From contig MRSU01000035.1 of NCBI GenBank assembly GCA_008369845.1, positions 1 to 56,309 of the forward strand: a stretch of 56,309 bases of DNA, read 5' to 3'. Source of the stretch: Trichomonas gallinae. Lineage: Eukaryota. Numbering within the stretch: position 1 is the stretch's first letter; every line of letters starts with the position of its first letter. The notes beneath the pieces are model-generated. The model ran no database searches and was not told the DNA's origin. It saw only the letters and a list, made by a program, of their open reading frames with translations. Positions 7,645 to 56,309 of the stretch are shown in pieces. Both the position numbers and the translations under genes were made by a program.

Positions 7645-8381
7645 ATGTTTATAAAAAATTGTGTTTTAGTTCAATTGTCTTATCCATTCAATTTAGTTGA
7701 CTCTTCTAGATATTAACTACAGACTATAATAGGTAATAATTAATTTTATCTCAAATAATCATCTATAATACCTATAACTGGTTCAGTATTGTTATGGATT
7801 TATATATTATATCAAAATTTGCAATATATTGCAACGCTTACAGGAAAGTGTTATAATGAATCCACTCATGGTATTTCGTCGATGATGAATATGTCAAGCC
7901 CAAATAATAATAATATCATCAATTGTAATTACAGGCACCAATAGAATTTGCTCAAAAAGGAGAGTTGAAGACAGGGCTATCAAACTTTAAAGTTCGTTAA
8001 AGACCCTCATCTTATGCATATTATCATTCCAAATACTGAAGAATCATTTATTATGATTTCATAAATTACATATAATTGAAAAAGACCGGAAATCAATTGA
8101 ATATCCTCATAGAATTATTCAATGTGTTCTTTCAAAAAATTGATGTAAAAGAATTGAAATGACTTTTGAAACGATGTTTAGATTATCGATAATTTAGTGC
8201 TCGTCTACTGTAGGTCAGCCCTCAACAAGGATTGCAAAAGATGAGCTCCCCTAAATCTTCTAAAGCTCTTGGTGACGACTACAACTGTTTGAGAAAACAT
8301 TATATTTGAAGCATAAAATTTGACACTTGTCACCGAAGAAATTTGTCACTTTTCACCGAGGAAGTTCACTTTAATTTATAT

Positions 8382-24129: not shown

Positions 24130-24330
24130 ACATTGTGACATGTAAAGTCAAAAATTGTATTCAAATGGCATGTAAAGTCTAAAAACTTGACGCGTAAAGT
24201 TCGAAAAATTATATAAAAATATCCTTCTGACATGTAATATTTTATTAACTGACGTGTAAAGTCAGAAAATTACCAAAAAGTGCTTTCTGACATGTAATAT
24301 TTTAAAACTGACTTGTAAAGTCGGAATAAT
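24130..24330. repeat. ~60-bp degenerate tandem repeat carrying multiple TGACRYGTAA motifs
   Basis: ctgacatgtaatatttt at ~24227 and ~24287; tgac(gc/gt/tt)gtaaagt at ~24188, ~24250 and ~24309. Confidence 0.75.
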
Positions 24331-27769: not shown

Positions 27770-29272
27770 GATGTAAATAATTTAAAAATAAAATAAAATT
27801 GTTATGCAAATATGTGTCTAATTATATTTATTATTTTTCAGATTTCCTCCATTCAATTTTATTTTTGATAATTTCTGTTAGTTTATATATTATCTATTAT
27901 TTTATTAATTTCGCTGAACGTTAAAAATACACAAAAATTGTAATTTTTCAAACATAAATTAAATTACTCCTATTAATCTAATTTGCAATATACCAATAGA
28001 ATAATTTTTTCAATTTGAATGAAATAAATCTCAAAAATTTATCATTACATATTATAATACCTTATTTGTAAAAACATTTGAATTGACGATAATTTTTCAT
28101 ATAAAATATAAGTCTTTCAAATTTATTTTTATGATTTTATACTTAATATTATATTATTATTAACATTGATTTAAATCCTAATTGAAAATTTAACGATAAT
28201 TTCCCTCATAAATTTTAGCTATTCAATTTTTTATTTGATATTATCAACACTAATACTGTAGTTTACAATTCATACAATGACGATAAAATTTTTCAATTTT
28301 GTAAACATTTTATCTCTTAATATTTATAATAACCATAGAATATCTACCTAAATTTATTTTATTTATAATCCGCACTTTTATTCTTGATGTAAAGAGTTAT
28401 TTGTCTAATGCTATATTAAAATCTTTTAAATGATGACTGTATGCATTTAACGGAAGCGATAACTCTCAATAATCCTTATTTTTTTGATTTTCATAATTGG
28501 AAAGGAATCAAAACAGCAATGGCGCTATATATTTTATAATTCAATTGGGTGTACGGGAGCATTCAACATGATTATACAGATTCAATCGCGAAATTAGTTT
28601 AATTTTATATCCCCAAATCAACTAAAGCACTTCTTAAGTTATGTGCTTAAGTTATAGCTTAAGTTTTACTACCAATATATTGTTCAAACGAACTTGTAAC
28701 TAAATTTTATAAATTTATAAATCAGATTATTATCCAAACGAATTCAAAGAAAGATACTATTGAAAGTGAAACTTTGTTGACTTAATTTGCAACACTGTCT
28801 TCCAAATCATATTTTCGATTATTTTAAAATATGAAGCGAAAATGATTGAGTTATAATATCAATGAAGATAATTATAGAGACAAAAATCAATGTATCACAA
28901 CAGAATAATAAATTGACAATTTCGTAGAGGAAATCGAATAGAAGAACAATGAAAATTGATGAATTCAAGTTCATTATTATGTAGTTGACGAATATAAAGA
29001 ATATATAGACATAAATAATGAAAATGAACAAAAAAATTATCAAATTGAGCCCAAATCTTCATCCAATAATCTTTCGTACATCAAATGAGAAGGTTATGAT
29101 TAAGTAATCTAAACATATATAGTGTCATATTTATTCTTTTGCATGAGTATATAACATCACACATGTTGTTGGTAGTATTATAGATAATGAATATTTTTGA
29201 CTTGTAATTTATTTTATGACATGTAAAATACAAAAACTTGTTATGTAAACCAAATAAGGTTCTACACTTTTC

Positions 29273-30559: not shown

Positions 30560-30830
30560 AAACTTTTTATAAATGCAAAAATTTTCACGTAATTATGCAA
30601 TACATGCTATTTTATATTCTTTTTTCGAAATTTAAATTTAACGTATTTTTTCTCAAAGCTTCAGAATTTTTAAGAAATTATGCAATATATGATATTTCAG
30701 ACATATTTTCGATTTAAAAAAATTAACGTATTTTTATAAAATTTCAAAAATTTCTACGAATTTATAAAATATATATGATTTTAAATAGTTTAAATTTAAA
30801 AAATTAACGTATTTCTTCTAAAAGTTTCAA
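30560..30830. repeat. degenerate ~82-bp repeat upstream of profilin
   Basis: ttaacgtattt recurs at ~30637, ~30723 and ~30804 with similar flanks. Confidence 0.55.
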
Positions 30831-31411
30831 AAAATTGAGAGGAAGATAGTAAAGCTTTCTGGACATCATCGTTGGGATGCATGAACCATAATGATAGAAT
30901 ATATCGCGATAAATCGAATGTTTGATCAAAATCATTGCTCGATCATGTTAAAACCAGTAATATTTATGTTCCTGCAATGAGAATTCATGCATATTCGCTA
31001 CTATAACGTTCCAAATAACAAAACTAGCAAGGCTTCTGAAAGGTTTCTTTTTTGACAGTCCATTCTATATGGGAACAATGCATTGTATTATTATAAGTTT
31101 GATATATATGAAAATATATATTAAACATAAAGACTATACAATGATTGGACAACTTTTCATATATTCTCGAACATATTATCTGCGTTATGAGTGTAATACG
31201 AATGTATTTTGACTTTTATCATCATTTTTGTTATATATCTATAATATTGACGTTAATTCACGAAATTTCAAAATTAATTCTTATATTTGGAACAATGTTG
31301 AAAAGTTTCGATATCCATGTCATTATCGACAGATACGATTTCTTTTCTTCTATCGCATTAAATGTCATTATCGACTGATTTGTAAATTATAAAAAATACA
31401 AACAATATTTA

Positions 31412-34400
31412 TTAATGTAAAAGGATAAGTGACACAGCATCAACAATGGACTGTTTTGGTCCGAGTTTCAATAATATTCGAAGCTTTGATTCGACATTCA
31501 ATAACTCAACAAACTTTTTTTGAATGTTTGTGATAAATGTCTCGAAGTTTAATTCATTGAGCGACTGCGAAGGATCAAATAAGAATGAAAACTCTTTGGC
31601 TACAAATCCAATAATTTTTCTCTTTTCTATTTCGAATGTACCTCTTGCTGAATCAATTTGCTTTTGTATTTCGAATTTCTGGCTCATTTTTTCGCATTCA
31701 TTCCGTGTTTCCAGCATATTCCTTGCTTGTAGTTCCTTTGATCGAAGTTCAGCAACCTCTAGCTCTAGCTTTTGATTAGTCAAAGAGAGCTCATTATTCG
31801 TTTTTGTTAGTTCTGAGTTAATACTATTAATCTTAGCCATTTCATCTGACAGAGACTGATTTTGACTTCTAATTCTTGATATTTCTTCATCATATGATTG
31901 AATTATATTCATATTTTGTTCTTTCAATGAATTCATCTGGAATTGATGCTCCATTTGTGCTCCATTGTTAAATACTTCGAATTTATGAATCATTTCATTA
32001 TTTTTATCTTGAAGTTTTTCGACTTTTTGCAATAATTTAGACTTGAGTTGTCTTAAGTCATGGTTTTCTTGCTTCAATTTGTCATTTCTTTCAGTAAGTA
32101 TCTTAAGTTCAGCTTTAACTCCTGCCAATGTGTTTAAAAGTTGTTGATTTGCATTAACGATTTCGTCAACTTTTGTTTGGGAAACTAATTTGATTTCGTC
32201 GATTTTCGAGGAAAATGCTTTCTCTGAGAAATTCAATCTTCTATCAAGCTCCTCTTTTTCATCTGTTATTTGTGACACTTGGCCTTTGAGTTTTGAATTT
32301 TGTGCATAGAGCTGAGAAATTTGATTATTAAGTTCATCAATTACTTCTGAATTTTTGATAAAAGCTTTTTCGTGTCTTGATTCTTTCTTTTTCTGGTCTT
32401 TGAGATTATTCTTTATTGCATTCTGTAATCTATGTGATTCGCTAGTTATCGATTGAAGATTTGCATAAGCTTCGTCATAAGTATTGACATTTAACAAATC
32501 GAGTAATTTTTGATATGCATTTTGAATTGTTAAGAGTTCCTCATTAAGATTATGATTGTCCTGATCCATTTTATTAAACTGCTCTATTAAAATCTGTTTA
32601 TCTCCTGGAGAATTCAAATCAAACTCTCCAAATTTCGAAACATTAATTTTATTGGCTTTTTCAGTTATTCTTGATGACTGTGAATTATACCATTTTGCAA
32701 TTATTGAGAAAAGCTGAGTGAGTTTTGTTGGAGTATTAAGTGTGCAATTTCCTAATTTATCAGCAAGTAATTTTCTTAGTTCTATTGGAAACTCTTCGAC
32801 TGTACTAATTGCTAAATCAATCAAATCAGATCTTATTTCTGGATTTTGTTTCATTTCATTTCTTATCACTCGAACTGAAGCTTGATTCATTTCATTGAAA
32901 GAATTAAATTGATTAGAATATATAGGTTCAAAATTCTTCATTCCATATGCAGAGGATTGATTTTGTATGATTTCATTAATCCTGGCTTCATTTGAAAAAT
33001 GATTTTTCATTATTTGGTTGAAGGAACTTTCATTTGAATATGTTTCACATGTTGAGAAATTATTCTGCTTTATATCATTAATTGTAGCTTCATTTTTGGG
33101 CTGTTCATTAATGAAATTTTGATTTGGATACATTGGATATATAAATGATTGATTTGATTTTGATTCATATGCAGAAGAAATTTGGTTTCTTTTTATTTCA
33201 TTTGTCGATTGATTTCTTTTTAGCTCTGTGATTGAATTTTGCAGGTTTTGCAATTGTGCAGCTAAAAGTTTGTTATCATTTGTCAAATCGTTTATTTTAA
33301 TTTTGTTTTGTTCGTTTTCGAATTTTGTTGAATTTAGCTGTTTCTCAAGATCTTCTATTCTGTTATTTTTAATTTTCAATATCTGCAAGTCAGCATTGAC
33401 GACAATTTGCTTACTTTCTTTTTCATTTTCTTTAATTTGTACTGTACTTACTTGTTTTCTTGTTTCAGCTACAAATTTTTCTGTTTTCATATCATTTAAC
33501 TCTTGAATTTGCTGCTGCACCATCAAATTTAATGATTTTTCTTTTTCTACTGCCGCTTTGAGCTGCTTTTCAATATATTTACGTGATGCAATTTCGTTGT
33601 CAAGTTTATCTCTTAAATCAGAGTTAGCTGACATTAATTCTCTTTTTTCGCCCAAAAACTGGGATTCTAATTCATTGATTTTAACTTTATACTGCATTAT
33701 TTCTCTTGATTGGTCAATGAATGTTGATTCTCTGTTTTTCTTAAGTTTTTCATTTTGATTAGATAAATTTTCAACTGTATTTTGCAATTCAGTGCATTTA
33801 TCAGATAAATTGCGTAATTTAATTTCATATGATTCTTTCAATGATTGTATTTCGCTCTCATGTGCAGACTTTAATACCATTATTCTAGATTTCAAATGAT
33901 CGAACTTATTTTTCCATTTAAGTGCTTGGAATAACTGTGTATCTGTGATATCGCATCCATCTTGAAATAGTTTTGGTTGTTTATTAGAATTAAAAGCATT
34001 ATTTAATTTATCAACGCTTTCAATAGAACAATTAAAGTATTTCGACGCATTTTGTAGTATATTGGAAAAATCATTATTAAACTTTGCAATTTGCTCACTC
34101 TGTTTAAGGATTTGATTTTGTAATTTCGAATTTATATCTGCAATTTGTTGTTTTGGTACTGAATTAATATTTTTATCTTGAATTGAATCACTTTCTGATA
34201 AAGAAAGTAGATCTATATTTAGATTTTGATTCTGATCTTCAATTTTTTGCAGAGCAATTCTTAATCTACGATGTAAATCATCATTTAGTGCCTCAGAAAG
34301 TCGCAGTTTGTTAGCCAAATTCATATTTTCGTGAAAAATTTGATCAATTTGTTGTGATACTGGAATTGCTTGATCTAATTGAACCTTCAACTTATTGATT

Positions 34401-35775: not shown

Positions 35776-37119
35776 TTACACAGTATACATAACTTTGTAA
35801 TCTGGATCTTTCTCCCTTTCTTTGACATCTTTTTGTTTTCTACATGATAAAACAACAACTGTAACAATAATAGCGATGCCAAGGATGGCAAATACTGATC
35901 CAGTGACTGCAAAAATAATTTTCTTCCTCGATTGACCACTTTCTTGATCATCATCTGGTTTTGCAGTTGGAGATGTAATAATACGAGTTGGTTCACGAGT
36001 CGGTTCACGTGTTGGATCATGTGTTGGTTCAGATGGATCAGGACTTGGTGATGGAAATGCACACTGTGGAACAACTGTTACTTTATTTTTATAAAATGGA
36101 GAATTAATTGTACTGTAAACATCTAATTTTGAGTCAAATACTGACGATATTGAGCCATCAATTATAGGATAAACAGTTGTGCATAATAATATATTCGCTG
36201 TTTTTGCAATCTTCGTGAAGACACCCTCAGATAAGGATACTGATGATTTGAATGTGATGTACTTCAAATTTGTGCATTTAGTAAAGGCTTCTGTGTGGAT
36301 AAAATTAATACTGGGTGGAAAAACAACTGATAGCAATGAATTACATGCTGAAAATGCAGTGCCAAGAATATCAACGAGGTTATTTCCAAATGTTGCATGC
36401 TTCAAATTGTTTGAATCACGAAATGCATTTGGATAAATATGTTTTAGATTAGCTGGGAACTTAAACTCGACAAGATTATCGCAGTCGGCAAATGCGTAGT
36501 CACGAATCTGTGTTATAGTACTCGGAAGATCGATTTTTGATAATTTTGAACAATACATAAAGCACCTCATTGGAATGTATGTGTTAACTGCAGGAACGAC
36601 AAAGTTATCTAAACTAGTGCATGATTCGAAACAGCTGTTGTTGAGATAACATTTTTGTGAAAGATTGATTGTTTTTAGTGAACTGCAGGCTTCAAATGCT
36701 CTAAACTGAAGAGTAATGGGAACCTCTGAAGAAGCTGATGCGAAATTAACTGCAGAAAGAGATGTACAATCTCTAAATGCATCAAAGCCAATTTCAACTA
36801 AAGTTGGAGGTAGATTAATTGTAGTGAGCTTTTCGCATTCTCTAAAACAATTGTCTGGGATAGTATCAATATTTTCAAGAATAGTTGCTGATAAAAGTGC
36901 CGGATATTCTCTGAAACAAGCTGGAGGTATTGTAATTTTTCCTGAAACTTTGAGACTTGTCATTGATTTTGAGCTATCTAATCTTTCTAAAACTTCAATA
37001 TCTATTGTTGGACTATATCGCAGCGATGTGATTGTCATTGCGTAGTTTTCGAATACATATCGAATGTTGCCTTGATCAATTGTCTCTGAAATCGACTTTG
37101 CTAAAAAAAGAGAAAACAT
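35776..37119 (-). CDS. BspA-like (TpLRR/LRR_5) surface protein
   Basis: Repeats of type LP..L..I...AF..C..L, Pro/Thr linker (PTREPTREPT), TM helix, cytosolic tail with YKVM (YxxPhi). First ATG at 37119. Confidence 0.93.
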   Translation of the reverse strand: MFSLFLAKSISETIDQGNIRYVFENYAMTITSLRYSPTIDIEVLERLDSSKSMTSLKVSGKITIPPACFREYPALLSATILENIDTIPDNCFRECEKLTTINLPPTLVEIGFDAFRDCTSLSAVNFASASSEVPITLQFRAFEACSSLKTINLSQKCYLNNSCFESCTSLDNFVVPAVNTYIPMRCFMYCSKLSKIDLPSTITQIRDYAFADCDNLVEFKFPANLKHIYPNAFRDSNNLKHATFGNNLVDILGTAFSACNSLLSVVFPPSINFIHTEAFTKCTNLKYITFKSSVSLSEGVFTKIAKTANILLCTTVYPIIDGSISSVFDSKLDVYSTINSPFYKNKVTVVPQCAFPSPSPDPSEPTHDPTREPTREPTRIITSPTAKPDDDQESGQSRKKIIFAVTGSVFAILGIAIIVTVVVLSCRKQKDVKEREKDPDYKVMYTV

Positions 37120-37599: not shown

Positions 37600-40500
37600 A
37601 TGCAACAACCAACTCTCGAAGAATTACTGCATGATAACCTTATTGATGTTGAGCAGTTCAAGAAGACGCCTGAGATGGTTAAGACTTTGGAGTGTTTTCA
37701 CTATGATTTGCCCGTCCATCCTGATTTTTCACCATTTCCGGGCCTTGTAGAACTCAGGATCATTGAACAAGATGTGGTTGACTTAGAATTCCTCAAAGAC
37801 TGCAAGAATTTACAAACATTGATAATTTTTCACACGCCTTTGAAGGATATATCAGGATTGAAATATTCTCCATATATAAAGCAGCTGATTCTTGAAGGAA
37901 ATAAGATTATGCAGTTTCCAGACATCACAGATTTCGAGGATATTGTTGAATTAAGCGTTGCAGAAAATCCAATTAAAGAAATAAAAGAATTTCCACGCAA
38001 CGAATCATTACAAATCCTCAATCTTTCGAATATTGGACTTTCATACTTATCAGAAACAATCGTTAATTTCCCAAATATCTATAAATTACAAATCGCAAAT
38101 AATAATCTTCACGATTATTCGATATTTAGGATTCTCGCTCAATTACCGAAGCTTACAGAATTGTATTTATATGACCCAATTTACGATGAAAATCCTATTT
38201 GCTCTTTTCCAAATTATGATATTCTTCCTCTTGCTTTATTACCAAATTTGACCATCTTGGATACATATAAAGTCAATGATAAGATGAAACAACAGTCCCA
38301 AAACAGAAGAAAACACGCAGAACTTTATTATTTATTCGAAGCATCATCAAATATGTCATTAATCTACGATCAGCTCGAAGAATTCCACAGCAAAGCCAAC
38401 GAGTGCCTCAATTCTATAACTTACGAGAATCAAATTGATCGAGAATTATTTTCCGATGTTTACAATATTATAAAAGATTTCGACCAGATCGGCATAGCTC
38501 TGCAGGAGTTCTACAGGCAGACGTCAACAACGACATTCATGACCGGCGGATGTATCACGATCGAGCAAATCGACACAGAAAACGAACAATCGAGGAACAT
38601 TGAAGATCTGATCCTCAAGAAGTGCACAACCAAAGAGAATTTCACGCTGTACGGAGTCTGGAAAGTCACTCATACGGCTGCGTTGTCTGAAATTGAAAAA
38701 GACGAGCTCGTTGAGCCTAGTAAATACGAAATTGTTGTCCCTGAGTCACTCAATGATGTAATTAAGTGGCTTTCAGACTGGCATCACGTTCAGCCAAATT
38801 TAGAAGTTCAGTCTTCAATAACAATCAGCTCGCAGACATCAGTAATATTCTGTGATCCACGAGGAAAGAGCGGTGTGCTGATTCCTGAATACATAGCTTT
38901 CTTCTGTGAATCTTTTGATTATGCATCTAACGAAATAAACAGAATCTGCGCACAAATCAAAGACTTAAAAGTTCCACAAGAGTCAATTATCAACGATGAG
39001 TCATTGTTTATCCTCCTAAAGCCTTTTGAATTGAAAGATACTCTTGTTAACATTACTCTAACGAATTGCGGCGTTAAATCACTTTCACAGTTCTCAGGTG
39101 TAACGAATCTGAAGTTTCTAGCCCTTCCTTTCAACGAAATAACAACTGTAAGAGATCTTCCTGAATTTCCGGCTCTTGACGTTTTAGATATCTCATATAA
39201 CAAGGTTTCTACCATTCCCGACCTTCTCCCCGACAGTGACGCAGCTGCTGACTCAGTCAAACTCTTCATTTTCTTTGGAAATCCGATTTGCAATCCAAGA
39301 ACCATTGCTTTATCTATGAATTTCTTCAGGAATTCAGCATCTATTATCAACGAGCCGAGGATTCCACTCTATGTTCCCCTCGAATCTCCAAGCGACGTCT
39401 TTTTAACATCTGTTTTTCCACCTGGAATTCAGTTAGAGTCCATTTCATCATTGGATTTCAGGAACCAGTGCTTGGTTACACTCGCTCCGCTTTCTCAGCT
39501 TCCTGCTCTTAAGATTTTGTATGCATCAGATAATATGTTGGAATCTATCGACTTTACATCAAAGACACTGACATTTGCGGACTTATCTTTGAATAATATA
39601 CAGAATTTCCCAACAGAACAGAATTTTCCAGCAATTGAAACATTATTGTTGAATGGCAACCAAATTTCCAAACTTTCTAGGATAGAAAACCTTCTCGCTT
39701 TGTTTATTTCAGATAATCAAGTCTCAGATCTAATCACAGAAGAATTATTCCCAAATCTTGTTTCTTTGTGTTGCAATGGTAACCCATTCCTCAAGAATTA
39801 CAACGACAACAGAATAATTTTCGGTTTATCCAAGCTGAAAATGCTGAATGGAACAAGAATCACACCAGCTATTGCTCAAAAAGCGAAAAACATGTACACA
39901 GGAGTCTTATTTGCTGAAACCAATTCGCAGCTGTTCAAGACAGGAACAACAACAATGTCGTTGGCTGAGCGTGGCTTGAAAGATGTTAATGCGCTGAAAA
40001 GTGATACGTTAATCGACCTAGATTTGAGCAAGAACAATATATCTACCATTACATGGGAGAGCACAAGTGTTCCACGACTTCAAAAACTCAATCTTTCGAA
40101 TAATTCGATGTTGTTATTCGATTTCGTTCAGTTTATTCCTAGACTAAGATATCTCGATCTATCATTCAACAAGATTACTGATGATATCTTGACTTGTTTG
40201 CAAAACACACCGTTCAATTCTTTGCAAACTTTAATTATCGCAAATAACAACATCAAAGGCATAGATGTCTTTTCAACTAAGACATTCCCCAACCTAGAAA
40301 CACTCAGCTTGTCCCACAACTACATAAACAGGATCGGACCAGGCGCATTTTCTCATCCTAAGCTTTCCATCATCGATTTATCATATAACTCGCTTAAGAA
40401 ACTCGATAACATCGCTTCCCAGCAAATCACAGCACTGGATTTGTCGCACAACAGGATTCCAACTGTCGATGAAGTCGAAAAACTTCGTCCGTGTGCGCAA

Positions 40501-40776
40501 TTGCTTAAATTCGCGTTCAGCGACAACAATCTCACGCAGAGGATCTCGCCGCGCATCAGGATTCTGTCAATACTCCGCTCTGTGAAAGAGATGGATGGGA
40601 AACCTGTCACTGAGTCAGACTTGAACCAGGTGAGAATCATAACTGAGCAGATGACCGGCGGACCGATTGTTTCTGCACGCTCACCGAAAGGACCAGCACC
40701 ATCCGCCACAAACCAGGTCTTGCCGCCCCTCCAGGGTGGAATGAAGAAGAAGACATTGCGTTTTCCAAGACAATAA
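37600..40776 (+). CDS. leucine-rich repeat protein, LRRC9-like
   Basis: SDS22-type LRR blocks with LYLYDPIYDENPICSFPNY...LPNLTILD cap and a central non-LRR region ending LIPEYI. Confidence 0.8.
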   Translation: MQQPTLEELLHDNLIDVEQFKKTPEMVKTLECFHYDLPVHPDFSPFPGLVELRIIEQDVVDLEFLKDCKNLQTLIIFHTPLKDISGLKYSPYIKQLILEGNKIMQFPDITDFEDIVELSVAENPIKEIKEFPRNESLQILNLSNIGLSYLSETIVNFPNIYKLQIANNNLHDYSIFRILAQLPKLTELYLYDPIYDENPICSFPNYDILPLALLPNLTILDTYKVNDKMKQQSQNRRKHAELYYLFEASSNMSLIYDQLEEFHSKANECLNSITYENQIDRELFSDVYNIIKDFDQIGIALQEFYRQTSTTTFMTGGCITIEQIDTENEQSRNIEDLILKKCTTKENFTLYGVWKVTHTAALSEIEKDELVEPSKYEIVVPESLNDVIKWLSDWHHVQPNLEVQSSITISSQTSVIFCDPRGKSGVLIPEYIAFFCESFDYASNEINRICAQIKDLKVPQESIINDESLFILLKPFELKDTLVNITLTNCGVKSLSQFSGVTNLKFLALPFNEITTVRDLPEFPALDVLDISYNKVSTIPDLLPDSDAAADSVKLFIFFGNPICNPRTIALSMNFFRNSASIINEPRIPLYVPLESPSDVFLTSVFPPGIQLESISSLDFRNQCLVTLAPLSQLPALKILYASDNMLESIDFTSKTLTFADLSLNNIQNFPTEQNFPAIETLLLNGNQISKLSRIENLLALFISDNQVSDLITEELFPNLVSLCCNGNPFLKNYNDNRIIFGLSKLKMLNGTRITPAIAQKAKNMYTGVLFAETNSQLFKTGTTTMSLAERGLKDVNALKSDTLIDLDLSKNNISTITWESTSVPRLQKLNLSNNSMLLFDFVQFIPRLRYLDLSFNKITDDILTCLQNTPFNSLQTLIIANNNIKGIDVFSTKTFPNLETLSLSHNYINRIGPGAFSHPKLSIIDLSYNSLKKLDNIASQQITALDLSHNRIPTVDEVEKLRPCAQLLKFAFSDNNLTQRISPRIRILSILRSVKEMDGKPVTESDLNQVRIITEQMTGGPIVSARSPKGPAPSATNQVLPPLQGGMKKKTLRFPRQ

Positions 40777-41529
40777 TTTTGTTTTCATATATATATATAT
40801 AAAATGTTTGTTTTATTACAACTATTTTTCATTTCTCTTTAATACACATAACAACAATCAAATAATAATTGACTTTTTTTTTAGAAGACAGTAAACAAAA
40901 AACTGACAACCAATAGTAATATTTTCTGTCATGTAAACAAAAAGAATATCGTGTAAATATTTTAATCATAATTTCTTAATTCTTTATTAATTTCAAAACT
41001 CGCCTATTTGTCAATATTTTGCATGAAGTGTTGTGTACCGAAATCGGTCACGAAAAAGTATATATTCTTACATGTCAGATTTTGAGCTGTAGATCGGGGG
41101 AAGAATTTAAAAAAATATCATTATTGGGTATGTTCAAGACATGACACAAACATTAGTTATGTCGCATCAAAACCTTAATAGCCCACAAAATAGAAAAGAT
41201 GCAGCCGCAAAAGAACAATAATAAACATAGAGTAGAATTTGTAAATTACAGCGAGCAAAAATTAAATATCACAATAATAAACATAGAGTAGAATTTGTAA
41301 TAGACTGCTATCATTCAGATTTGTAATAAAACGAATCTAAGGCAAATTAATTCTTGAATATCAATACATACTCCATCAAAGCGAAATTCTAAGGCAAATT
41401 AATTCTTTGAATAGACCAAATTTAATATAGGCTCACGTAAAGAACATAAATAGCAGTATTTATGAACATCTAATGGTACAAAATACAGTGAATCTTTGTA
41501 ATTAAATATCATGATTTTTGTCATGTAAA

Positions 41530-42250
41530 ATGGCAATTTCGTTACTCTTCACTCATCTGGTTTTGGTTTATTACAATTATGGAAAGAGTCAATACGTGGA
41601 CTGGATTAAACATAATAATTAATTTCTATTCACAATGTATTTTAATGTTTATAAGTGGAAAATGCGATCCTGTAAATCTTCCTTTGGAAACATTTCGAAT
41701 GGGTGGAAAATACTATTTTGTCAATCAGATTTTAATCTCAGTATGGTTTTATATGACAATTGATAATATTAAGGATGATATTTGTAATTATTCCTAATTC
41801 TGTTAACTTTTATGTAAAACTATACTGAGTTCATGATCAGATTGACAAAATCTAATCAATAATTTATAGGCTTTGTATTTTAAATCAACTGTAGTATTTT
41901 AATCATTATCGGGGACTATCTTTGATATTATTCATTTTGCAATATCTTCTTTAATAAATTTTGAAGCGATTCTCGAATTTAATGGATAAAAATCGAATTT
42001 GGTCGGAAAGATCCTAATACAATTGAAATTCAGACATTTGTACCTAACTTATTCGCAGATTCATGTCCATATTGGTCCAAAGTAACAACCGATGTATTTT
42101 TCCTATTTCCACTAAATGGATACCAAATGTAGTATCTGAAGAATAAATTATGGCATTAATTGACACTATGAACTGAAATCATGGTTATGCCCCATCATGT
42201 ATGGAATATCCATGATGGATATACTCCATATGATTCATGTAGAACCGTGA
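41530..42250 (+). pseudogene. possible decayed protein-coding gene
   Basis: ATG at ~41530 gives MAISLLFTHLVLVYYNYGKSQYVDWIK*, followed by short coding-like fragments in other frames (DPVNLPLETFRMGGKYYF; DPNTIEIQTFVPNLFADSCPYWSKV). Confidence 0.3.
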
Positions 42251-42591
42251 TTTCAGCCAAAATCCATTTTTAAATTTGACGTGTAAAGTGTCAAATTTGA
42301 CGCCTATCAGGAGGTCATGAACTCACAAATATGTGCATGTATATGATCATGTGGCACATATCTCATATGATGTTGAAATCCATCATATGATCACAGACAA
42401 GATTTATTTGAATTTTTTTCTAAAATCAGAAGATAATCTTGTCGTAGGTTCTCAAGACATATTCGCTGAAAGACTATGGTTATTTTATCATTGTTGTAGC
42501 CTATATTATTTAATTACACGATCAACTTTAGCAATTCATAAGATATCTTAATAAATTTCTGTTGTATTAATAAAAAAGCAACAAAAAATAT

Positions 42592-45726: not shown

Positions 45727-46237
45727 TTTAAATTCTTTTTAAATAAACGGTATATTTTTTGAGCAACTCGATTTTTCGTTATTTTTAATGCTTATAGAAT
45801 AATATATCTATATTTCGCCTAAATTGAGATTTTTAAATATTCTGTCATGTAAAGTTTTTTAAAAACATTTGATTATTAATTATTTAAACTGCAAAAATTA
45901 TTTCAAAATTAAATATCAATAAATCATTAGATTTCGTTTTTCTGATATTTACACGTCAAATTTAAAAATATGTCATGTAAAATAATCACTTTACATGACA
46001 TATTTTAATTCTGTTCCAAAAAATATTATATAAGCAGCCATATATTTAATATTTATAATGGTGTTAAGGAAATGTAATAATATTAAGGAGCTATACACAT
46101 GTGTTGACATTGAAAGATTCAAAAAATGAAATTTTGGAACAAATATAGTATTTATTATGATATGTGAACTTATAGTACACATGTTATTAATTTTCAAGTT
46201 CATTTTTTCATAGCGAAGAAACTTCTTCCATCAAAAT

Positions 46238-48388
46238 ATGGAAGATGATTATAAAATTAATGAAGGATCAAAAGAACAAAAGGAAGATGCTCAAATTGTG
46301 GCATTAGATATAATATCAAATCCTGAAATGCAAAATGACGACTTAACATTTATTCGATTATTTAATGAGCAAGTTGACGCTGTTATGTCACAACTAGATC
46401 AAAGAAATACTTCTACTGTACAAAATGTCCTATTGGAAATTACCGATTTATGTAAAAATCATGGAGAAACTTTTTTTCTTCAATTATTACAGAGCGAAAC
46501 CTTCCAAATTTTTACGGATTTACTTCATATTCCAACCTATTCTGCTATATTTAGCTTAACATCAGAGATTGGTGAGTCTTCAAAAGAAGTTGCATTTAAA
46601 TACGCTCAAACACACATGTTTTACTATTTTCGTAAGAAATTTATTGAAAATTCATGCCACACGTATGTTATACCTTATCAGATAACAATGCGAAATATAA
46701 TTTCAAAAAATATTTTTATTGGACTCTATTTATATTCAGTTGGTTTCTTTGAGAACGTATTTAGCTGTATACAGGAATTAAATGATAATAGAATGATTCC
46801 TGTATTGGATATGATTGTTCCTTTCTTCGAAAATTGGCAATATTTTCAAACTAAGTCAGAAAAGACTCAAATTGATATTTTATCATTCAACAGTTCCATA
46901 CAGTATAATAACTTCATGAGAATTAGGCATATTTTGTTAAATTTCTTCACTCAAGATATTTCATTCGTATTATGCGATGAGCCTCCTTTATCTCAACCTT
47001 TATGCAATATAATAGAAAATGACGTTCAAATTACTAGATTTGTTTGCATTTTCGCAATTAAATTTCATATTCACTTGCTTATTACTTTAATTGAGAATCA
47101 TCATGTTTTACCTTATGATATGTTGGTTCAATGCTCAAACGATTTATTGAGTGTTATCAAAGATTTATCAATCGAAAATGCAATTCCACTATGCAATGAG
47201 ATATTAGCAAAGTTAAATCAAGAACCAGCCAATATTGATGCTGTAATTGTAATTTTAGCCCAAGTGAAAGAAATAATAATGAATTTTAATTTAGATTCAA
47301 TTGATCAAAAATTAGCACTGGAAATAGTGCAGCATTTCATCCCATATGCATCCCAGTATGTCCGATTTTTAGGAGAACAATATAATTATGAATCATTCAC
47401 GGAAATGGAACAAATTTTAAATATTTCTAATTTTTTCGAATCTTTACACAATGCAATCAAAGAATTCATTGTTGATGTATTAAATGTCATAAATCAAAGC
47501 CAAAATCCAGAATTGAAGAATTTTGTGAAATTTGCAAATATTTATTTAGATTTCCAAGTTAAATTCAGTTATATTGAACCATTCAATCTTGAAAGATCAT
47601 TACTTCCTTCTATTTACGAAAAAAACATTCTATCAAATATTGTTCAATTTATGATTTCAAAAATCAAGATTTACATGCCTGAAATACAAATGTATGTTTT
47701 TCATCTAGCAACAACTTTAATTGTCGATTTACAAGAAACAAAATCGCTCAAATTCGCAATATTTAATCTTTTTATTCCATTATTTAATCATTTCAACGAA
47801 ATTGGTGCGATTAATGAACAGATGATTGAATTATGCTATAACATTTCAGCTTATGATTTAAGAGGCATCGTTAATGATGATTTTTGGAAAATGTTGATAA
47901 ATTGGCAGCTTACTGTTCAATATGAGACTCTTACACCTGATTTTGACATAGATTATATCTCATTGCTCAATAATATAATAGAAAACTATGATAATATACA
48001 AAAGGAAATTATTCAAAATATAATTCAAATATTAAAAGGACAAATCTTACCTGAAGCAAGATACGAAGTCAAAAAGGAGGCAATAAATGTGATAATGCTT
48101 ATTGTTATCACGCATCATATGTTTGAAGAATTTCCAGATATAATTGAAGACTTATTTGAGTTCATTTCTGATGAAGATAATGACCTGGATTCATTAATAC
48201 TTATGAATCTAAAAGATATAATTAATTTAGTCTTGATAAATATAAATGAACCAAATTGCCAGAAAATAAAAGAATTAGTATTCGAGTTCGATATATATGA
48301 TGCAATAGATGCATTAGAGAGCTCAAATGACGAAGAAATTGCATCATTAGCCAAAGAATTATTGGAAATCATTGATCAATTCCAATAA
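46238..48388 (+). CDS. hypothetical alpha-solenoid (ARM-like) protein
   Basis: 716-aa AT-rich ORF. C-terminus IDALESSNDEEIASLAKELL resembles the end of ARM/importin-alpha-type folds. Confidence 0.7.
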   Translation: MEDDYKINEGSKEQKEDAQIVALDIISNPEMQNDDLTFIRLFNEQVDAVMSQLDQRNTSTVQNVLLEITDLCKNHGETFFLQLLQSETFQIFTDLLHIPTYSAIFSLTSEIGESSKEVAFKYAQTHMFYYFRKKFIENSCHTYVIPYQITMRNIISKNIFIGLYLYSVGFFENVFSCIQELNDNRMIPVLDMIVPFFENWQYFQTKSEKTQIDILSFNSSIQYNNFMRIRHILLNFFTQDISFVLCDEPPLSQPLCNIIENDVQITRFVCIFAIKFHIHLLITLIENHHVLPYDMLVQCSNDLLSVIKDLSIENAIPLCNEILAKLNQEPANIDAVIVILAQVKEIIMNFNLDSIDQKLALEIVQHFIPYASQYVRFLGEQYNYESFTEMEQILNISNFFESLHNAIKEFIVDVLNVINQSQNPELKNFVKFANIYLDFQVKFSYIEPFNLERSLLPSIYEKNILSNIVQFMISKIKIYMPEIQMYVFHLATTLIVDLQETKSLKFAIFNLFIPLFNHFNEIGAINEQMIELCYNISAYDLRGIVNDDFWKMLINWQLTVQYETLTPDFDIDYISLLNNIIENYDNIQKEIIQNIIQILKGQILPEARYEVKKEAINVIMLIVITHHMFEEFPDIIEDLFEFISDEDNDLDSLILMNLKDIINLVLININEPNCQKIKELVFEFDIYDAIDALESSNDEEIASLAKELLEIIDQFQ

Positions 48389-48943
48389 TGATTTAACAAT
48401 CAAATGCTGTTTTTAATTTTGTAAAATACATTGATATAATCTCAGATCAAACGTCTTATTGCATAAATACTGAAATCAATTGAGTTTTATACAGGAAAAA
48501 TTAGATATTCTAGCTCTCAATGAGTAACGTATTTAGATGTTCGAGTGTTATTTCTGCTTGTAACAAAATTGACTATATCTTGTTGTTTCACACGATACTG
48601 TCAACTTGATTACTTGTGGAAACAAGTTTTTCGTAATTTGTGAATCAAATTGATGCTTTTTTACGCTTTTCATCTTTACTGATTGTTCATAACAAATTTG
48701 TAGCACTAAAAACATTCAGTAAACACGGAAAGCGTAAGAAGTTTCCGAAAAACGGAGCCATCAATGACCAGAAATCTACTGTTTGATAACTGTGAAATGG
48801 GTTATATTCGGGTACCACACTTTTTGAGAAATTCTGACATTGTAAAGTGTCAAAAATGCCACAAGTTAAATTGACGTCTGACATTTTACAATTGCAGATT
48901 TCTTAGTAAATTTTTTGAAAATCTGACACGTAAAGTTTATTTC

Positions 48944-50314
48944 ATGTTTTCTCTTTTATTTGCTCTTGCTTCTTCTTTTGTCATCAAAAAAGCTGACTAT
49001 GACGAAGCCATGACATATGTAAATAAGCGTGGAAAACTTTTTATCCTTGCAGTTAACTCGGATAGCTTTAATTATCCATTAATTCTCCATTCTTACACAA
49101 ACGTCGCTCACGAAACAGACATGGATGCCAACTTCCTCATCGTCGATATTTTCGAACAGGATTTAACTCCAAGCCAATTCAATGCAAGCGAATTCCCATG
49201 TTTGTCTTTTTATCAAGATGGAATTTTCTACAAGTGCCACACAGGTCATTTCAGCAAAGAATATATCACTGTGTTCGTAAATTCGAATAATTTCTCTCCG
49301 ATTCCTTATATTGCTACAGAAGACGGCTTAGAAGAGTTCAAGAAGACAGCAGCACTCGGATTCATCGCAGCTTTGGATTTACCAAGCCAGCACATCGTAA
49401 ACTTCATGAATGTCATGCATCGCGAACATTTCAATGAAATCACAGTTGCTTTTGCAAATCCTCAAATTTTCGATGATAATGGATTTTATCTGTTCAGATT
49501 CGAAGACCAGGCAATGTTTGCTCTTGGAGATATTGAACATTTGGGTGCAGACGAAATTCTTCAAATGATTGTTGATAGATCTGTGCCATTAACACACCAT
49601 CTTAACGGAGATATCGCAAACTGGTTCATGAACAATCATGTTCCATTCATTATTCTCAATTATGCTTATGAAGGATTTTACATCAACGAAAAGAGCGCTC
49701 GTGAGGCTGACTACATTTCAACTGAGTGCGAACTTAATGTTACATACTCAAAACAAGGAGTAAACCCAATTCCAGGACAATTCGGAATTTGGCCATCCAA
49801 AGATCCACAAATGTGCATCATTGATAACACAAAGCGCTATGCAAAGCACTACTGTGTTGATGGAGAGCTTAACTCTGCATCTGCAATTGATCTTTGCATG
49901 CAATGGAGACAAGGCAAAGCCAAGAAGCTCTACAAGTCAGAGGTCAGGAAAGGAAAGAAGAGATCGAAGTCGGATCTTGAATCAATCAACGCTTACGAAT
50001 TGCAAGATGAAATCGCAAAGGGTGGAAAGCTTGTCATCGGTGTCTACTATTCGGATGATGAGTGCTTAAAGTCATTGAAGCAGATTGCCAAAGAAATGGA
50101 TGGTCAGCCAGTAAGATTTGTTGAATTTTCTCTTTTCACAAACGACTGGAGTGCCGATGAAGAAGTTGATACCCATCCTCTTCCAAGACTCGTTGTCTAC
50201 AACAAAGGCAAGCTGTTACTTCAGACTCAACTCGCCAATGAAACGCAGGCAGCATATGATCAGATCACTCATGCCTTCTACCAGTCAAAGAAGGACCAAG
50301 AGAACTCAGAGTAA
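48944..50314 (+). CDS. secretory-pathway thioredoxin-fold (PDI-like, no CxxC) protein
   Basis: Leader MFSLLFALASS, FPCLSFYQDG, KKLYKSE (PDI x-linker-like KSE), LPRLVVYNKG; no catalytic CxxC. Confidence 0.6.
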   Translation: MFSLLFALASSFVIKKADYDEAMTYVNKRGKLFILAVNSDSFNYPLILHSYTNVAHETDMDANFLIVDIFEQDLTPSQFNASEFPCLSFYQDGIFYKCHTGHFSKEYITVFVNSNNFSPIPYIATEDGLEEFKKTAALGFIAALDLPSQHIVNFMNVMHREHFNEITVAFANPQIFDDNGFYLFRFEDQAMFALGDIEHLGADEILQMIVDRSVPLTHHLNGDIANWFMNNHVPFIILNYAYEGFYINEKSAREADYISTECELNVTYSKQGVNPIPGQFGIWPSKDPQMCIIDNTKRYAKHYCVDGELNSASAIDLCMQWRQGKAKKLYKSEVRKGKKRSKSDLESINAYELQDEIAKGGKLVIGVYYSDDECLKSLKQIAKEMDGQPVRFVEFSLFTNDWSADEEVDTHPLPRLVVYNKGKLLLQTQLANETQAAYDQITHAFYQSKKDQENSE

Positions 50315-50618
50315 AAGTAAAATTATGAGTAACTAAAATTAACATAATAATATAAATTGAGCTGATAAAAAAAGAATTTATGATTGAAAAAAAAAACATC
50401 GGATTCAAATTATTTGGCCTTAAGACACTAAAACATTATTTTGTTTTGCGTGTCAAAGAATTAGAATGTAAAGTGTCGGATTGGTAGATTTTGGGATGAT
50501 AATTCTGACATTTTACATTTTGACACTTTACCATGACATATTAGTTGTCAAAAAATAATGTAAATAATTTACATGTCAAAATTTTGGAAAAAAAAGTTCG
50601 TTTTTCATTTTAGGAAGA

Positions 50619-51337
50619 ATGAGTAAAAAAATAAAGCCAACGCTTCATTCAGCAGCACGCGAAGGAAACGTTGCTGATTTAGAGTTAATCTTCCAAATAC
50701 CAGAAATAAATCCAAATGAAGTTCATTTTCTTTCTCAAACAGTTCATTATTATTCGTATGATATTCATTTTTTAACTTATAACTTAATTCAACATACCAT
50801 CATGGTATTCATCATTTGTATATTGGACCGCCTTACATTACGCAGCTTTAGAAGGACGTAGAGATACTGTTAATTTCTTAATTAAGAAAGGTGCTGATAT
50901 CAATAAGCTTACTGAAGGCATTCATAATACATTTTCATTGTTCATTATATATCTTACTTAATTCATCATAATTTAATGTAGAGAGTATTCATCTTTTTAA
51001 TATCTAGTTCATTATTTGCTTTTCAAGTACAGTTTTATTTCTAACAAACAGAGTGGACCAGTTTTTCATGTTTTTATGTAATTCATCATTTATTTTTAGT
51101 GTACAAGTACAATTTATGGGAGTAACACCTCTTCATATTGCTACGCGTAAGGGATATAATGCAATTGTTGCTGATCTTCTTCGAGCCGGCGCAAATCCAG
51201 ATGTTCTAGATTTATTAGGACAAAAAGCTATTGTATATGCTAATCCAAAGACAAAAGCTGTCTTCGACTTCGAACTTAAACAGAACACTCCTGAGGAAGA
51301 GGAGAAGGACGAAGAAGAAGAGCAAGATGATGAATAA
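50619..51337 (+). CDS. ankyrin-repeat protein split into three coding blocks (~50619-50723, ~50821-50916, ~51116-51337)
   Basis: Block 1 TLHSAAREGNVADLELIFQIPEINPNEV; block 2 YWTALHYAALEGRRDTVNFLIKKGADINKLTE; block 3 MGVTPLHIATRKGYNAIVADLLRAGANPD...EQDDE*. Inr tcattt at 50605; stop lies in TAAA. Confidence 0.85.
51027..51051 (+). other. 25-nt type-B-like trichomonad spliceosomal intron
   Basis: gtacagttttatttctaacaaacag: GTAC donor and fused TCTAAC-A-AACAG branch/acceptor, 25 nt. Confidence 0.7.
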
Positions 51338-51552
51338 ATATTTTATTTTTCATTATCAAATAGAAAATCATAGATAACTATAAACATACAAATCCAAGCT
51401 ATTTATTATAAAAATTACAATCATAGTATCTTTATATTAGAATTTATAATCGATAAGAAACCATTATGATGGAATTTTGTATTTGGTTAGTTGTATGGAA
51501 AGGATTTCAGCTACTATATAAGAAAAAATACTAACAAAAATTTATAATATTA

Positions 51553-52548
51553 TCAAAATATTCGACAGCCTTCATCTAATGCACTAAGTGTCAAACTATA
51601 GTCATCTTCTTCCTCTGCTTCATCTTCATCCTCAGCATTACCTGTTCCAAACAGATATTCTTCGAATGCGTTCCAGCAGATTTCGTCATTTTTAGTATTA
51701 TACTTATCACCTGCCTCTTTAAGTTGACGTTCAATCCTATCATAGTCAGGTGTATCTTCGTATTTCAATTCTAGAAGATAAATATAGATATTTTTCAATT
51801 GCGAAGGCATGCTTAAGAGAATTTCGGATTGTGTAACTCTCTGTCTGAGCTTGACGACATCACTTCTCTGGCCACCACATGACCAAGGGAGTTTGCCTTG
51901 AACAAACTCAACAATCATGTAAAACCAAGAAATTAAGTCATCGCATCGTCCAAGATCGCAACCTTTAAGTGCATTGTCGGATGCGTACATAGTAGTGCCT
52001 ACAAAACCATTTCCATTGTTAACAGCGAATGGTTTTCCAGTGTTCGGATCGATATGTTTTTTTGCAAAGCCGAAATCTATCAAAACAATAGGTGGAGTGC
52101 TTTTAATTCGACGATATACGAAGTTACTCGGTTTCACATCGCGATGAATGTAGCCTCTCATGTGCAATTTCTTTAATAGTCTAAAAGTTTCATGCGCAAG
52201 AGGGACAACAAACATCATAGGAAACTTTCTTCCAGGTAGAAGACGACGAAGTTGTGACAAAGATTTGCCGTAGAGGTCCATGACAAACCATTTGAATTGT
52301 TCTGTTTCCCCTGTTGCTCTAACTTTCGGATACTCGGGTGAATTTAATCTGCGAAGGATTTTTACTTCGTGTTGAAGTGTTGGGCGCTTTTTCTGTTGAA
52401 TTTCTGCTTTGAACGCAAATAATTTGTTCGATTTTGTATGTGTTACGGTGTATACATCTCCGTATCCACCGTGTCCAATCTGTTTTCCGATAATGAAATT
52501 CCCCACAGTTGTCCCCTCTTGGAGAACAACGCGAGGAGGCTTTTCCAT
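51553..52548 (-). CDS. CK1-group (TTBK-like) protein kinase
   Basis: IGHGGYGDVY, AFKAE, HRDVKPSNF, LIDFGFA, GTTMYAS, LGRCDDLISW. Start placed at ATG 52548 after Inr ttcacttt. Confidence 0.95.
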   Translation of the reverse strand: MEKPPRVVLQEGTTVGNFIIGKQIGHGGYGDVYTVTHTKSNKLFAFKAEIQQKKRPTLQHEVKILRRLNSPEYPKVRATGETEQFKWFVMDLYGKSLSQLRRLLPGRKFPMMFVVPLAHETFRLLKKLHMRGYIHRDVKPSNFVYRRIKSTPPIVLIDFGFAKKHIDPNTGKPFAVNNGNGFVGTTMYASDNALKGCDLGRCDDLISWFYMIVEFVQGKLPWSCGGQRSDVVKLRQRVTQSEILLSMPSQLKNIYIYLLELKYEDTPDYDRIERQLKEAGDKYNTKNDEICWNAFEEYLFGTGNAEDEDEAEEEDDYSLTLSALDEGCRIF

Positions 52549-55722: not shown

Positions 55723-55955
55723 AGAGTTGTCACTTTTTGAAGAAATTAATTTCTGAATTTTCCCGCATTAATAATACGTATTATTAATTTTAAAATATGT
55801 CATGTAATTTTAAATTGTATCATGTAAACGTCAAAACAATATAAACAATATAGGCAATGAAACTTCGATGCTACCGGTAAATTTGACTCAATCTAATATA
55901 TAATAATATAACAGGGCCTCCACCCTGACCATATTCTTTGTGCCATCAATAATTT

Positions 55956-56246
55956 TTGATAGATAATGAATATGACTACGAATATTTCACCGACGACGAA
56001 GCTCTTCATGCGAGTAAAGTCAATATAGACGGTAAGTCAATGATAAGAAGAAGAAAATCAGAAGAAAAGAATGCAGACAATGAATATGACTACGAATATT
56101 TCACAGTTGATGAAGCAATCCACAAAACACACATAGTTAAAGACGGAAATCCACTTAATAGATACAGAAATGGCGAAAAAGATTCAGACGACGAGTACGA
56201 ATATAACTATTCTACTGATGATGAATACAATCAATGTTGTGCATAA
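55956..56246 (+). repeat. threefold acidic/Tyr peptide repeat (NEYDYEYFTxDE) in an ATG-less reading frame; probable gene fragment
   Basis: aatgaatatgactacgaatatttcac at ~55965 and ~56079; third degenerate copy at ~56190. Confidence 0.5.
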
Positions 56247-56309
56247 ACAAACTAGAATTCTCAAAAGAAAGTAAAGATACTTCATTTCTTTTTCTAATAT
56301 TACAAAAAG

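Follow-up and report, generated by a model that had tools for sequence, protein, structure and literature searches.

The analysed stretch of DNA, here called the window, comprises 56,309 nucleotides of Trichomonas gallinae, and the gene coordinates below follow its numbering. At 50619-51337 of the forward strand, in a neighbourhood that includes a BspA-type LRR gene, a Myb gene and kinases, lies an ankyrin gene whose three blocks sit in three different reading frames, separated by two inserts. Blocks 2 and 3 passed the Pfam Ank cut-offs (E values of 8e-9 and 5e-7, respectively), block 1 by itself gave no Pfam match, and the three-frame arrangement reported in a preliminary description of this DNA was borne out. 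An Inr-like TCATT (50605-50609, forward strand) precedes the ATG by 10 nt, and TAAA is found at the stop; both had been called intact, and we confirm their presence; they would presumably serve as the Inr and a signal, respectively. Across both inserts the motif RTTCA[T/A] recurs about every 20 nt, with five copies of TTCA[T/A] in insert 1 and nine in insert 2. The net removal came to 88 nt for insert 1 and 145 nt for insert 2, both of the form 3n+1 as had been calculated, and insert 1 indeed has one internal AG (50741-50742). None of its GT/GC..AG cuts keeps the first motif of block 2 in frame, in agreement with the earlier statement that no canonical acceptor joins blocks 1 and 2. Canonical splicing alone would leave the gene with an 80-aa truncated product.

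We then compared the locus with sequencing runs. One run search gave six runs, two of which, X1 and X2, hold part of the stretch, and these were aligned over 50300-51700. X1 is a bird metagenome, which was read whole, and comes from a different sample than X2; the classes, DNA for X1 and RNA for X2, are guesses and do not come from a record. Over 20 kb, the long contigs of X1 showed a depth of about 27 over genes and gaps alike. The pieces of X2 listed over the same 20 kb varied in depth from 4 to 33, and six of the seven checked lay wholly within ORFs, the seventh reaching 71 nt beyond a stop; with its pieces mostly inside ORFs and its depth uneven, X2 thus behaves as RNA. One X2 contig, of 464 nt and depth 33, matches the window at 50633-50720, 50823-50922 and 51098-51323, and its two joints, 50720 to 50823 and 50922 to 51098, carry 14 and 30 extra letters, respectively. 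As a result of parsing the inserts against this contig, 43 of the 44 joint letters were found to equal window micro-exons in order, and the remaining one is the X1 allele at 50983, which is synonymous. In X1, a single contig of 6,962 nt covers the stretch with the inserts retained, and both joints have a depth of 0. This unbroken contig argues against a window assembly error, and equally against a near-identical intronless copy.

The parse yields 14 exons and 13 introns, all on the forward strand. Exon 1 (50619-50720, 102 nt; X2 piece 50633-50720) holds ankyrin block 1 and is followed by mini-intron 1 (50721-50738, 18 nt, GT..AA), which is 17 nt in X1, where one base is absent at 50733, showing that spacer length modulo 3 is free. 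Insert 1 continues with micro-exon 2 (50739-50741, 3 nt, Thr), mini-intron 2 (50742-50759, 18 nt, GT..AT), micro-exon 3 (50760-50762, 3 nt, Asp), mini-intron 3 (50763-50780, 18 nt, AT..AT), micro-exon 4 (50781-50786, 6 nt, Asn-Leu), mini-intron 4 (50787-50803, 17 nt, AT..AT, no slide possible), micro-exon 5 (50804-50806, 3 nt, Gly) and mini-intron 5 (50807-50823, 17 nt, AT..AT), and ends at exon 6 (50824-50919, 96 nt; X2 piece), which holds block 2. Insert 2 opens with mini-intron 6 (50920-50936, 17 nt, AT..TC), micro-exon 7 (50937-50939, 3 nt, Ile) and mini-intron 7 (50940-50957, 18 nt, GT..AC); because mini-intron 6 slides by -1/+3, up to 3 nt, a single cut of 35 nt could also take the place of introns 6 and 7. 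These are followed by micro-exon 8 (50958-50960, 3 nt, Leu), mini-intron 8 (50961-50977, 17 nt, AT..AT, no slide possible), micro-exon 9 (50978-50986, 9 nt), in which the synonymous allele of X1 and X2 falls, mini-intron 9 (50987-51003, 17 nt, AT..AT), micro-exon 10 (51004-51006, 3 nt, Leu), mini-intron 10 (51007-51023, 17 nt, GT..TT, no slide possible), micro-exon 11 (51024-51026, 3 nt, Gln), the canonical intron 11 (51027-51051, 25 nt, GT..AG), micro-exon 12 (51052-51060, 9 nt, Ser-Gly-Pro), mini-intron 12 (51061-51077, 17 nt, GT..AT), micro-exon 13 (51078-51080, 3 nt, Val) and mini-intron 13 (51081-51097, 17 nt, AT..TT). Exon 14 (51098-51337, 240 nt; X2 piece 51098-51323) carries block 3, the acidic tail and the TAA stop. 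Mini-introns 4, 6, 8 and 10 are placed by the parse, micro-exon 7 by the spacer pattern, micro-exon 9 by the X1 and X2 contigs, intron 11 by its motif and its loss from the X2 contig, and the other internal units by the X2 contig together with the parse.

The eleven micro-exons therefore measure, in order, 3, 3, 6, 3, 3, 3, 9, 3, 3, 9 and 3 nt, and the spacers comprise eight of 17 nt, four of 18 nt and the one 25-nt intron. With all 13 introns out, an open frame of 486 nt results, encoding a small ankyrin protein of 161 aa whose second loop is long and whose tail is acidic, and the loop motif DNLGW is restored in it. Several proposals of the preliminary description gave way at this point: the inserts had been treated as single removable blocks, and we found the eleven kept micro-exons inside them; a joint of TTT to TTT had been drawn, and the contig shows different junctions; insert 2 had been credited with a GC...AG option only, and it holds 18 in-frame GT/GC..AG options, none used in the contig. 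Its general idea, that this may be an undescribed system of gene interruption and processing, mini-intron removal being one option, stood up better than the specifics. Recursive removal would involve nested GT-AG units, and the contig instead indicates a chain of AG-less spacers lying next to one another, with the micro-exons between them retained. Another of its options, in which the ribosome bypasses the inserts or shifts frame on an unspliced mRNA, would suit the phase 0 of all window spacers. As the X2 contig has already lost the spacers, no such step is needed, and we regard it as extremely improbable.

To judge the parse against chance, we used as target the window-derived micro-exon string, with one mismatch allowed, a GT or AT start and spacers of 17-18 or 25 nt. 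Under this rule, shuffled micro-exon strings parsed in 0 of 2000 trials for each insert, and the exact parse was almost unique, with two solutions for insert 1 and one for insert 2. When the gaps were loosened to 10-30 nt with any start, 15 of 200 shuffles parsed for insert 1 and none of 200 for insert 2. The joined form is known from a single contig and the sequence is AT-rich, as might suit an artefact, whether from template switching by the reverse transcriptase, a jumping polymerase or faulty assembly. Such an origin is nevertheless highly unlikely in view of the shuffle result and of the 12-13 ordered skips that restore a motif present in all nine full-length orthologues (see below); junction micro-homology is 0-4 nt, and zero in four of the 12 mini-introns, and its maximum of 4 nt argues against template switching. 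From this single assembled contig of a run taken to be RNA, we conclude that the spacers are very likely removed at the RNA level. In the 20 kb examined, X2 held no further gene with such joints beyond the window gene; two of its three joints belong to the ankyrin gene, and the third, at 51942-52057 (a 24-nt side with loose ends on both sides), was set aside as a likely related kinase and not splicing. Of the remaining runs, X3 and X4 gave no match to the gene and X5 and X6 none in the 20 kb, and X2 shows no cover inside the inserts, in the gap at 40979-42312 or over the ORF at 46238-48388; no weight is given to these blanks.

We next consider the signals of the twelve mini-introns. All of them start with [G/A]T-W-Y-W-D (GTWYWD in five and ATWYWD in seven), all have T at +9, and together they contain 4 G in 196 nt. 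No AG lies inside any of the twelve and no slide yields an end in AG, and the fused branch/acceptor motif TCTAAC-H(1-2)-AACAG is missing from every one. The AG at 51098-51099, immediately after mini-intron 13, is retained in the X2 contig, unused as an acceptor. A at -2 is enriched (9/12, p=0.0006; three lack it), and the last base is a pyrimidine in 11. With the starts anchored, the ends are AT..AT in five, GT..AT in two, and GT..AA, GT..AC, GT..TT, AT..TC and AT..TT in one each. U12-type introns have AT-AC or GT-AG ends together with an extended donor and branch consensus; as none of the anchored ends is AT..AC, a U12-type identity was rejected. Splicing of the IRE1/RtcB or tRNA type uses a hairpin or a bulge-helix-bulge at both cut sites, and this too was rejected, as 13 junction folds, made in short windows and with no shuffle control, ranged from 0 to -4.2 kcal/mol and gave no recurring or common hairpin. 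Tandem Repeats Finder did not detect the spacer chains, and Rfam gave no matches.

Some smaller regularities were seen among these units. C at +14 and A at +17 are common to all four 18-nt units (introns 1, 2, 3 and 7), and A at +16 to all four 19-nt units of the related locus L001 described below; these bases may act as cues that lengthen the cut. Read together, mini-intron 1, micro-exon 2 and the next G (50721-50742) form a GT..AG unit of 22 nt whose branch motif has decayed; it is unused in the contig and may hint at the way in which type B introns gave rise to the units. The RTTCAT with which mini-introns start overlaps the Inr-like TCA(T/C)(T/A) seen upstream of the ATG; this is likely a coincidence, because the L001 units do not share it.

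Type B introns of trichomonads, as given in two recent intron surveys (PMC12316389, PMC13548475), follow GTWYWD-N7-TCTAAC-H(1-2)-AACAG and are 23-26 nt long, and GTTCAG and GTTCAA are among the validated donors (PMC13548475 Table 2). Intron 11 matches this motif at 25 nt and is missing from the X2 contig, so that the earlier description of insert 2 had overlooked a textbook type B intron. The second A of TAAC in the type B motif stands at +18, and intron 11 agrees. By analogy with yeast, this A at +18 would be the branch point. The mini-introns end where this likely branch A falls, and correspond exactly to the donor-to-branch segment. They resemble type B introns in a T-rich body, a fixed short length and a donor-like start, which is GTWYWD itself in five of the twelve, but differ in lacking the TCTAAC..AACAG end, in measuring 17-18 nt, and in their seven AT starts.

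We then searched for relatives of the gene. A metagenome scan yielded a single locus from 133 pattern matches, L001, of 65% identity and with T-rich inserts in the same two loops. Its model is homology-guided, with 3' ends set by protein homology only, and contains 17 units of 17-19 nt, 16 starting with GT and one with AT, none ending in AG. A further unit, of 23 nt and with GT..AG ends, lies close to where the window has its canonical intron. The joined frame is open and aligns end to end. In the first loop, all five window positions recur, plus one extra, around the same five residues TDNLG; in the second loop the positions differ, and three of 18 junctions fall inside codons, in phases 1 and 2. 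A protein-blind parse recovered the starts and not the correct 3' ends, in L001 and the window alike. The donors of L001 match GTWYWD in 3/17, A at -2 is not enriched (5/17, p=0.19), and one unit has no A after +2. Downstream of its ankyrin gene L001 carries CFAP91 (3272-5065 in L001) and Myb (5159-5725 in L001) genes, at a place where the window has a kinase and Myb, with Myb alone common to both.

These junctions bear on a ribosome- or codon-linked removal, in which cleavage and rejoining would take place at codon borders on stalled ribosomes. Anchored on the GT or AT start, all 13 window introns lie between codons and each of the 11 micro-exons has a length divisible by 3, as this would predict, but the phase 1 and 2 units needed by the L001 model do not conform, and symmetric exons can be explained by selection against exon-skipping frameshifts. 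We consider such a process very unlikely.

Of the 34 orthologous proteins in a tree, from which two 54-aa fragments had been omitted, nine are full length (168-170 aa), all nine with DNLGW, and the other 25 are fragmentary (72-106 aa), starting at or just before block 3. Among the fragments are two annotated proteins: Trichomonas vaginalis G3 TVAG_221630, annotated as the last block only, has 73 aa and differs at one residue from the 73-aa block-3 ORF of the window; that of Tritrichomonas musculus has 84 aa. Several fragments bear F/L/I-rich leaders, consistent with T-rich DNA; fragments may also derive from ordinary introns or contig ends. The genes of two full-length orthologues, P0105 and P0107, lie on contigs of 7.4 and 5.0 kb, respectively, and some lineages therefore likely lack the interruptions. 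The tree had only three well-supported branches and gave no order of gain or loss. Genome contigs searched gave no relatives, and viral contigs one ankyrin locus of 25% identity. Orthologues P0010 and P0156 have Pfam Ank matches above the cut-off, and a structure model of P0010 (pLDDT 64.5) matched generic ankyrins only; PDB, fold and representative searches likewise returned generic ankyrins, apart from one further orthologue, and offered no hint of function; a Yar1-like chaperone role found no support in the sequence and fold searches.

Such uninterrupted genes, together with the inferred RNA status of X2 and the different samples behind X1 and X2, could speak for the joined contig being an intronless copy or allele, as DNA or transcript, with the window locus as a decayed copy. 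Against this, the joined form is absent from X1 at its depth of about 27, the X1 allele inside a micro-exon also occurs in X2, and in both the window and L001 the conserved loop is still encoded by the micro-exons. Furthermore, X2 and X1 agree at all five exonic differences of the X2 pieces from the window, five of the seven exonic differences to X1 among those listed are synonymous, and protein searches gave no full-length Trichomonas orthologue. A decayed copy is thus a very improbable account, and removal from RNA remains our reading.

As for the agent of removal, the analysis points, with the chemistry inferred, to the spliceosome as the probable catalyst, and a length-ruler mode is favoured because the spacer length equals the type B donor-to-branch distance. 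Spliceosomal removal in general depends on snRNPs and passes through a 2'-5' lariat. The starts fit type B donors apart from +1. In the window and L001 alike, the chain includes a canonical intron, and that of the window is missing from the same X2 contig as the mini-introns; in Fritillaria, a U2 spliceosome removes non-GT-AG introns (PMC13326754). On the other side stand the missing branch motif, the AT starts and the units without a suitable A. A branch-to-acceptor distance of 0-1 nt does not fit the known geometry of the spliceosome. The mini-introns would then represent type B introns that stop at the branch position. After binding the [G/A]TWYWD donor, the spliceosome would count off 17-18 nt and make the join at that point, A at -2 being preferred and not required, and each 3-nt exon might be held against the preceding exon for the following round. 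Chains could grow and turn over through duplication and loss of spacer-plus-codon units in inter-repeat loops. As retention of a single intron truncates the protein for 8 of the 13 introns, and only 80 of the 8,192 possible patterns of retention allow translation to the C-terminus, the output of the gene would depend steeply on how efficiently it is spliced, a role that is speculative.

The same features could be produced without the spliceosome, if a protein bound the [G/A]T-pyrimidine motif, cut 17-18 nt apart and re-ligated the ends in a manner like IRE1/RtcB or tRNA splicing but without the stem-loop. The lack of AG, of a branch motif and, in some units, of a usable A, the preponderance of AT starts and the ignored AG ahead of exon 14 would all follow naturally, and 3-nt exons among 17-nt introns presumably leave a spliceosome little room. 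Such a nuclease-ligase is nonetheless rather unlikely, since every start fits the type B donor apart from +1, the length matches the type B donor-to-branch span, both species have a canonical unit inside the chain, and the junctions share no hairpin. We therefore lean towards the view that this is an intact 161-aa ankyrin gene, whose mRNA likely lacks twelve AG-less mini-introns and a canonical 25-nt intron, the mini-introns likely being cut by the parasite's own spliceosome via donor and fixed length. More broadly, trichomonads would probably have a second mode of mRNA splicing, with a donor-like start and a 17-19-nt ruler and neither acceptor AG nor branch motif, which stitches single codons together. 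Behind it could stand either a spliceosome whose second step has collapsed or a new enzyme that cuts and ligates. It would be conserved across parabasalids and missed by motif-filtered surveys, and many more genes, at present annotated as fragments, may be interrupted in this way.

We compared the mini-introns with known systems. Stentor introns are 15-16 nt long, mostly GU-AG, with a branch A and a 5-nt tail (PMC9505925); these and the mikrocytid introns of 16-17 nt, compared on size only (PMC10245619), are likewise small, tight in length and AU-rich. In Stentor the branch A stands some 6 nt before the end of a GU..AG intron; the mini-introns have neither this arrangement nor any AG, and they flank exons down to one codon. 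Fritillaria borealis also has non-canonical ends and offers the precedent for removal by the U2 spliceosome, but there such introns exceed 90% of the total, genome-wide, along with a duplicated U2AF (PMC13326754), in contrast to a gene-restricted, fixed-length chain in an intron-poor genome. The micro-exon genes of Schistosoma similarly have very short exons, of 3-81 bp, with introns up to 5 kb (PMC10526429), as opposed to AG-less mini-introns and introns of 17-25 nt in the window gene, whose micro-exons, unlike those of Schistosoma, build a conserved ankyrin loop; genes of the Schistosoma type also skip exons alternatively. The mRNAs of XBP1 and HAC1 are spliced independently of the spliceosome (PMC13149111). 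There, too, a short non-GT-AG intron is lost and the frame shifts. These transcripts have one intron with paired hairpins, as against twelve unstructured units with a donor-like start in the window. AG-less mini-introns of this kind had no description in the literature searched, a scope that lay outside subscription journals and bioRxiv supplements, and TVAG_221630 appeared neither there nor in the examined supplements of the two surveys. Chained AG-less mini-introns are thus apparently undescribed.

Few signals of nuclear pre-mRNA splicing are as constant as the 3' AG and the branch site, and even the tiny introns of Stentor keep them (PMC9505925). Twelve introns without AG or branch motif, likely removed with base precision, probe the needs of the second step and the minimum size of an exon. 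If the spliceosome is the catalyst, they would form a new intron class within spliceosomal splicing and not a new chemistry; the gene likely points to a splicing type, not described before, in a group of human and bird parasites, and a parasite-specific activity might, speculatively, be a drug target. The surveys credit T. vaginalis with 48-63 introns genome-wide, filter on known motifs so that junctions without them are dropped, and report 23 nt as the shortest intron (PMC12316389, PMC13548475). The window gene alone would add 13 to that number, compared with a maximum of two per gene in trichomonads reported by both surveys. With the T. vaginalis orthologue annotated as a 73-aa fragment, the claim is testable on existing long-read data. 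In the S3 Table of PMC12316389, rows 19 and 30 give 25-nt T. vaginalis type B introns marked 'inactive/not assembled', with starts GTTCAT and GTACAG, which are candidates for further hidden chains.

Scans of the rest of the window gave further observations. Chains from a matrix scan at 27826, 6345, 14038 and 7288 were discarded as weak, with 3-4 units and dependent on the matrix, the two checked being AT-rich intergenic or gene-edge sequence; a TTCAT-rich stretch at 32831-33030 proved to be the antisense of a 1,020-aa ORF. Lone 27-nt GT..TAAC..AG motifs outside long ORFs, at 127-153 and 7696-7722 on the forward strand and 41794-41820 on the reverse, are probably due to chance. The BspA-type LRR gene and a second LRR gene lie head to head (35776-37119 and 37600-40776), and intergenic tandem repeats at 185-583, 24182-24321 and 30634-30833 have units of 109, 60 and 84 nt, respectively. 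Many X1 contigs from elsewhere match AT-rich intergenic stretches near 45960, 48820-48860, 50500-50590 and 55850-56300, which suggests that these are dispersed intergenic repeats.
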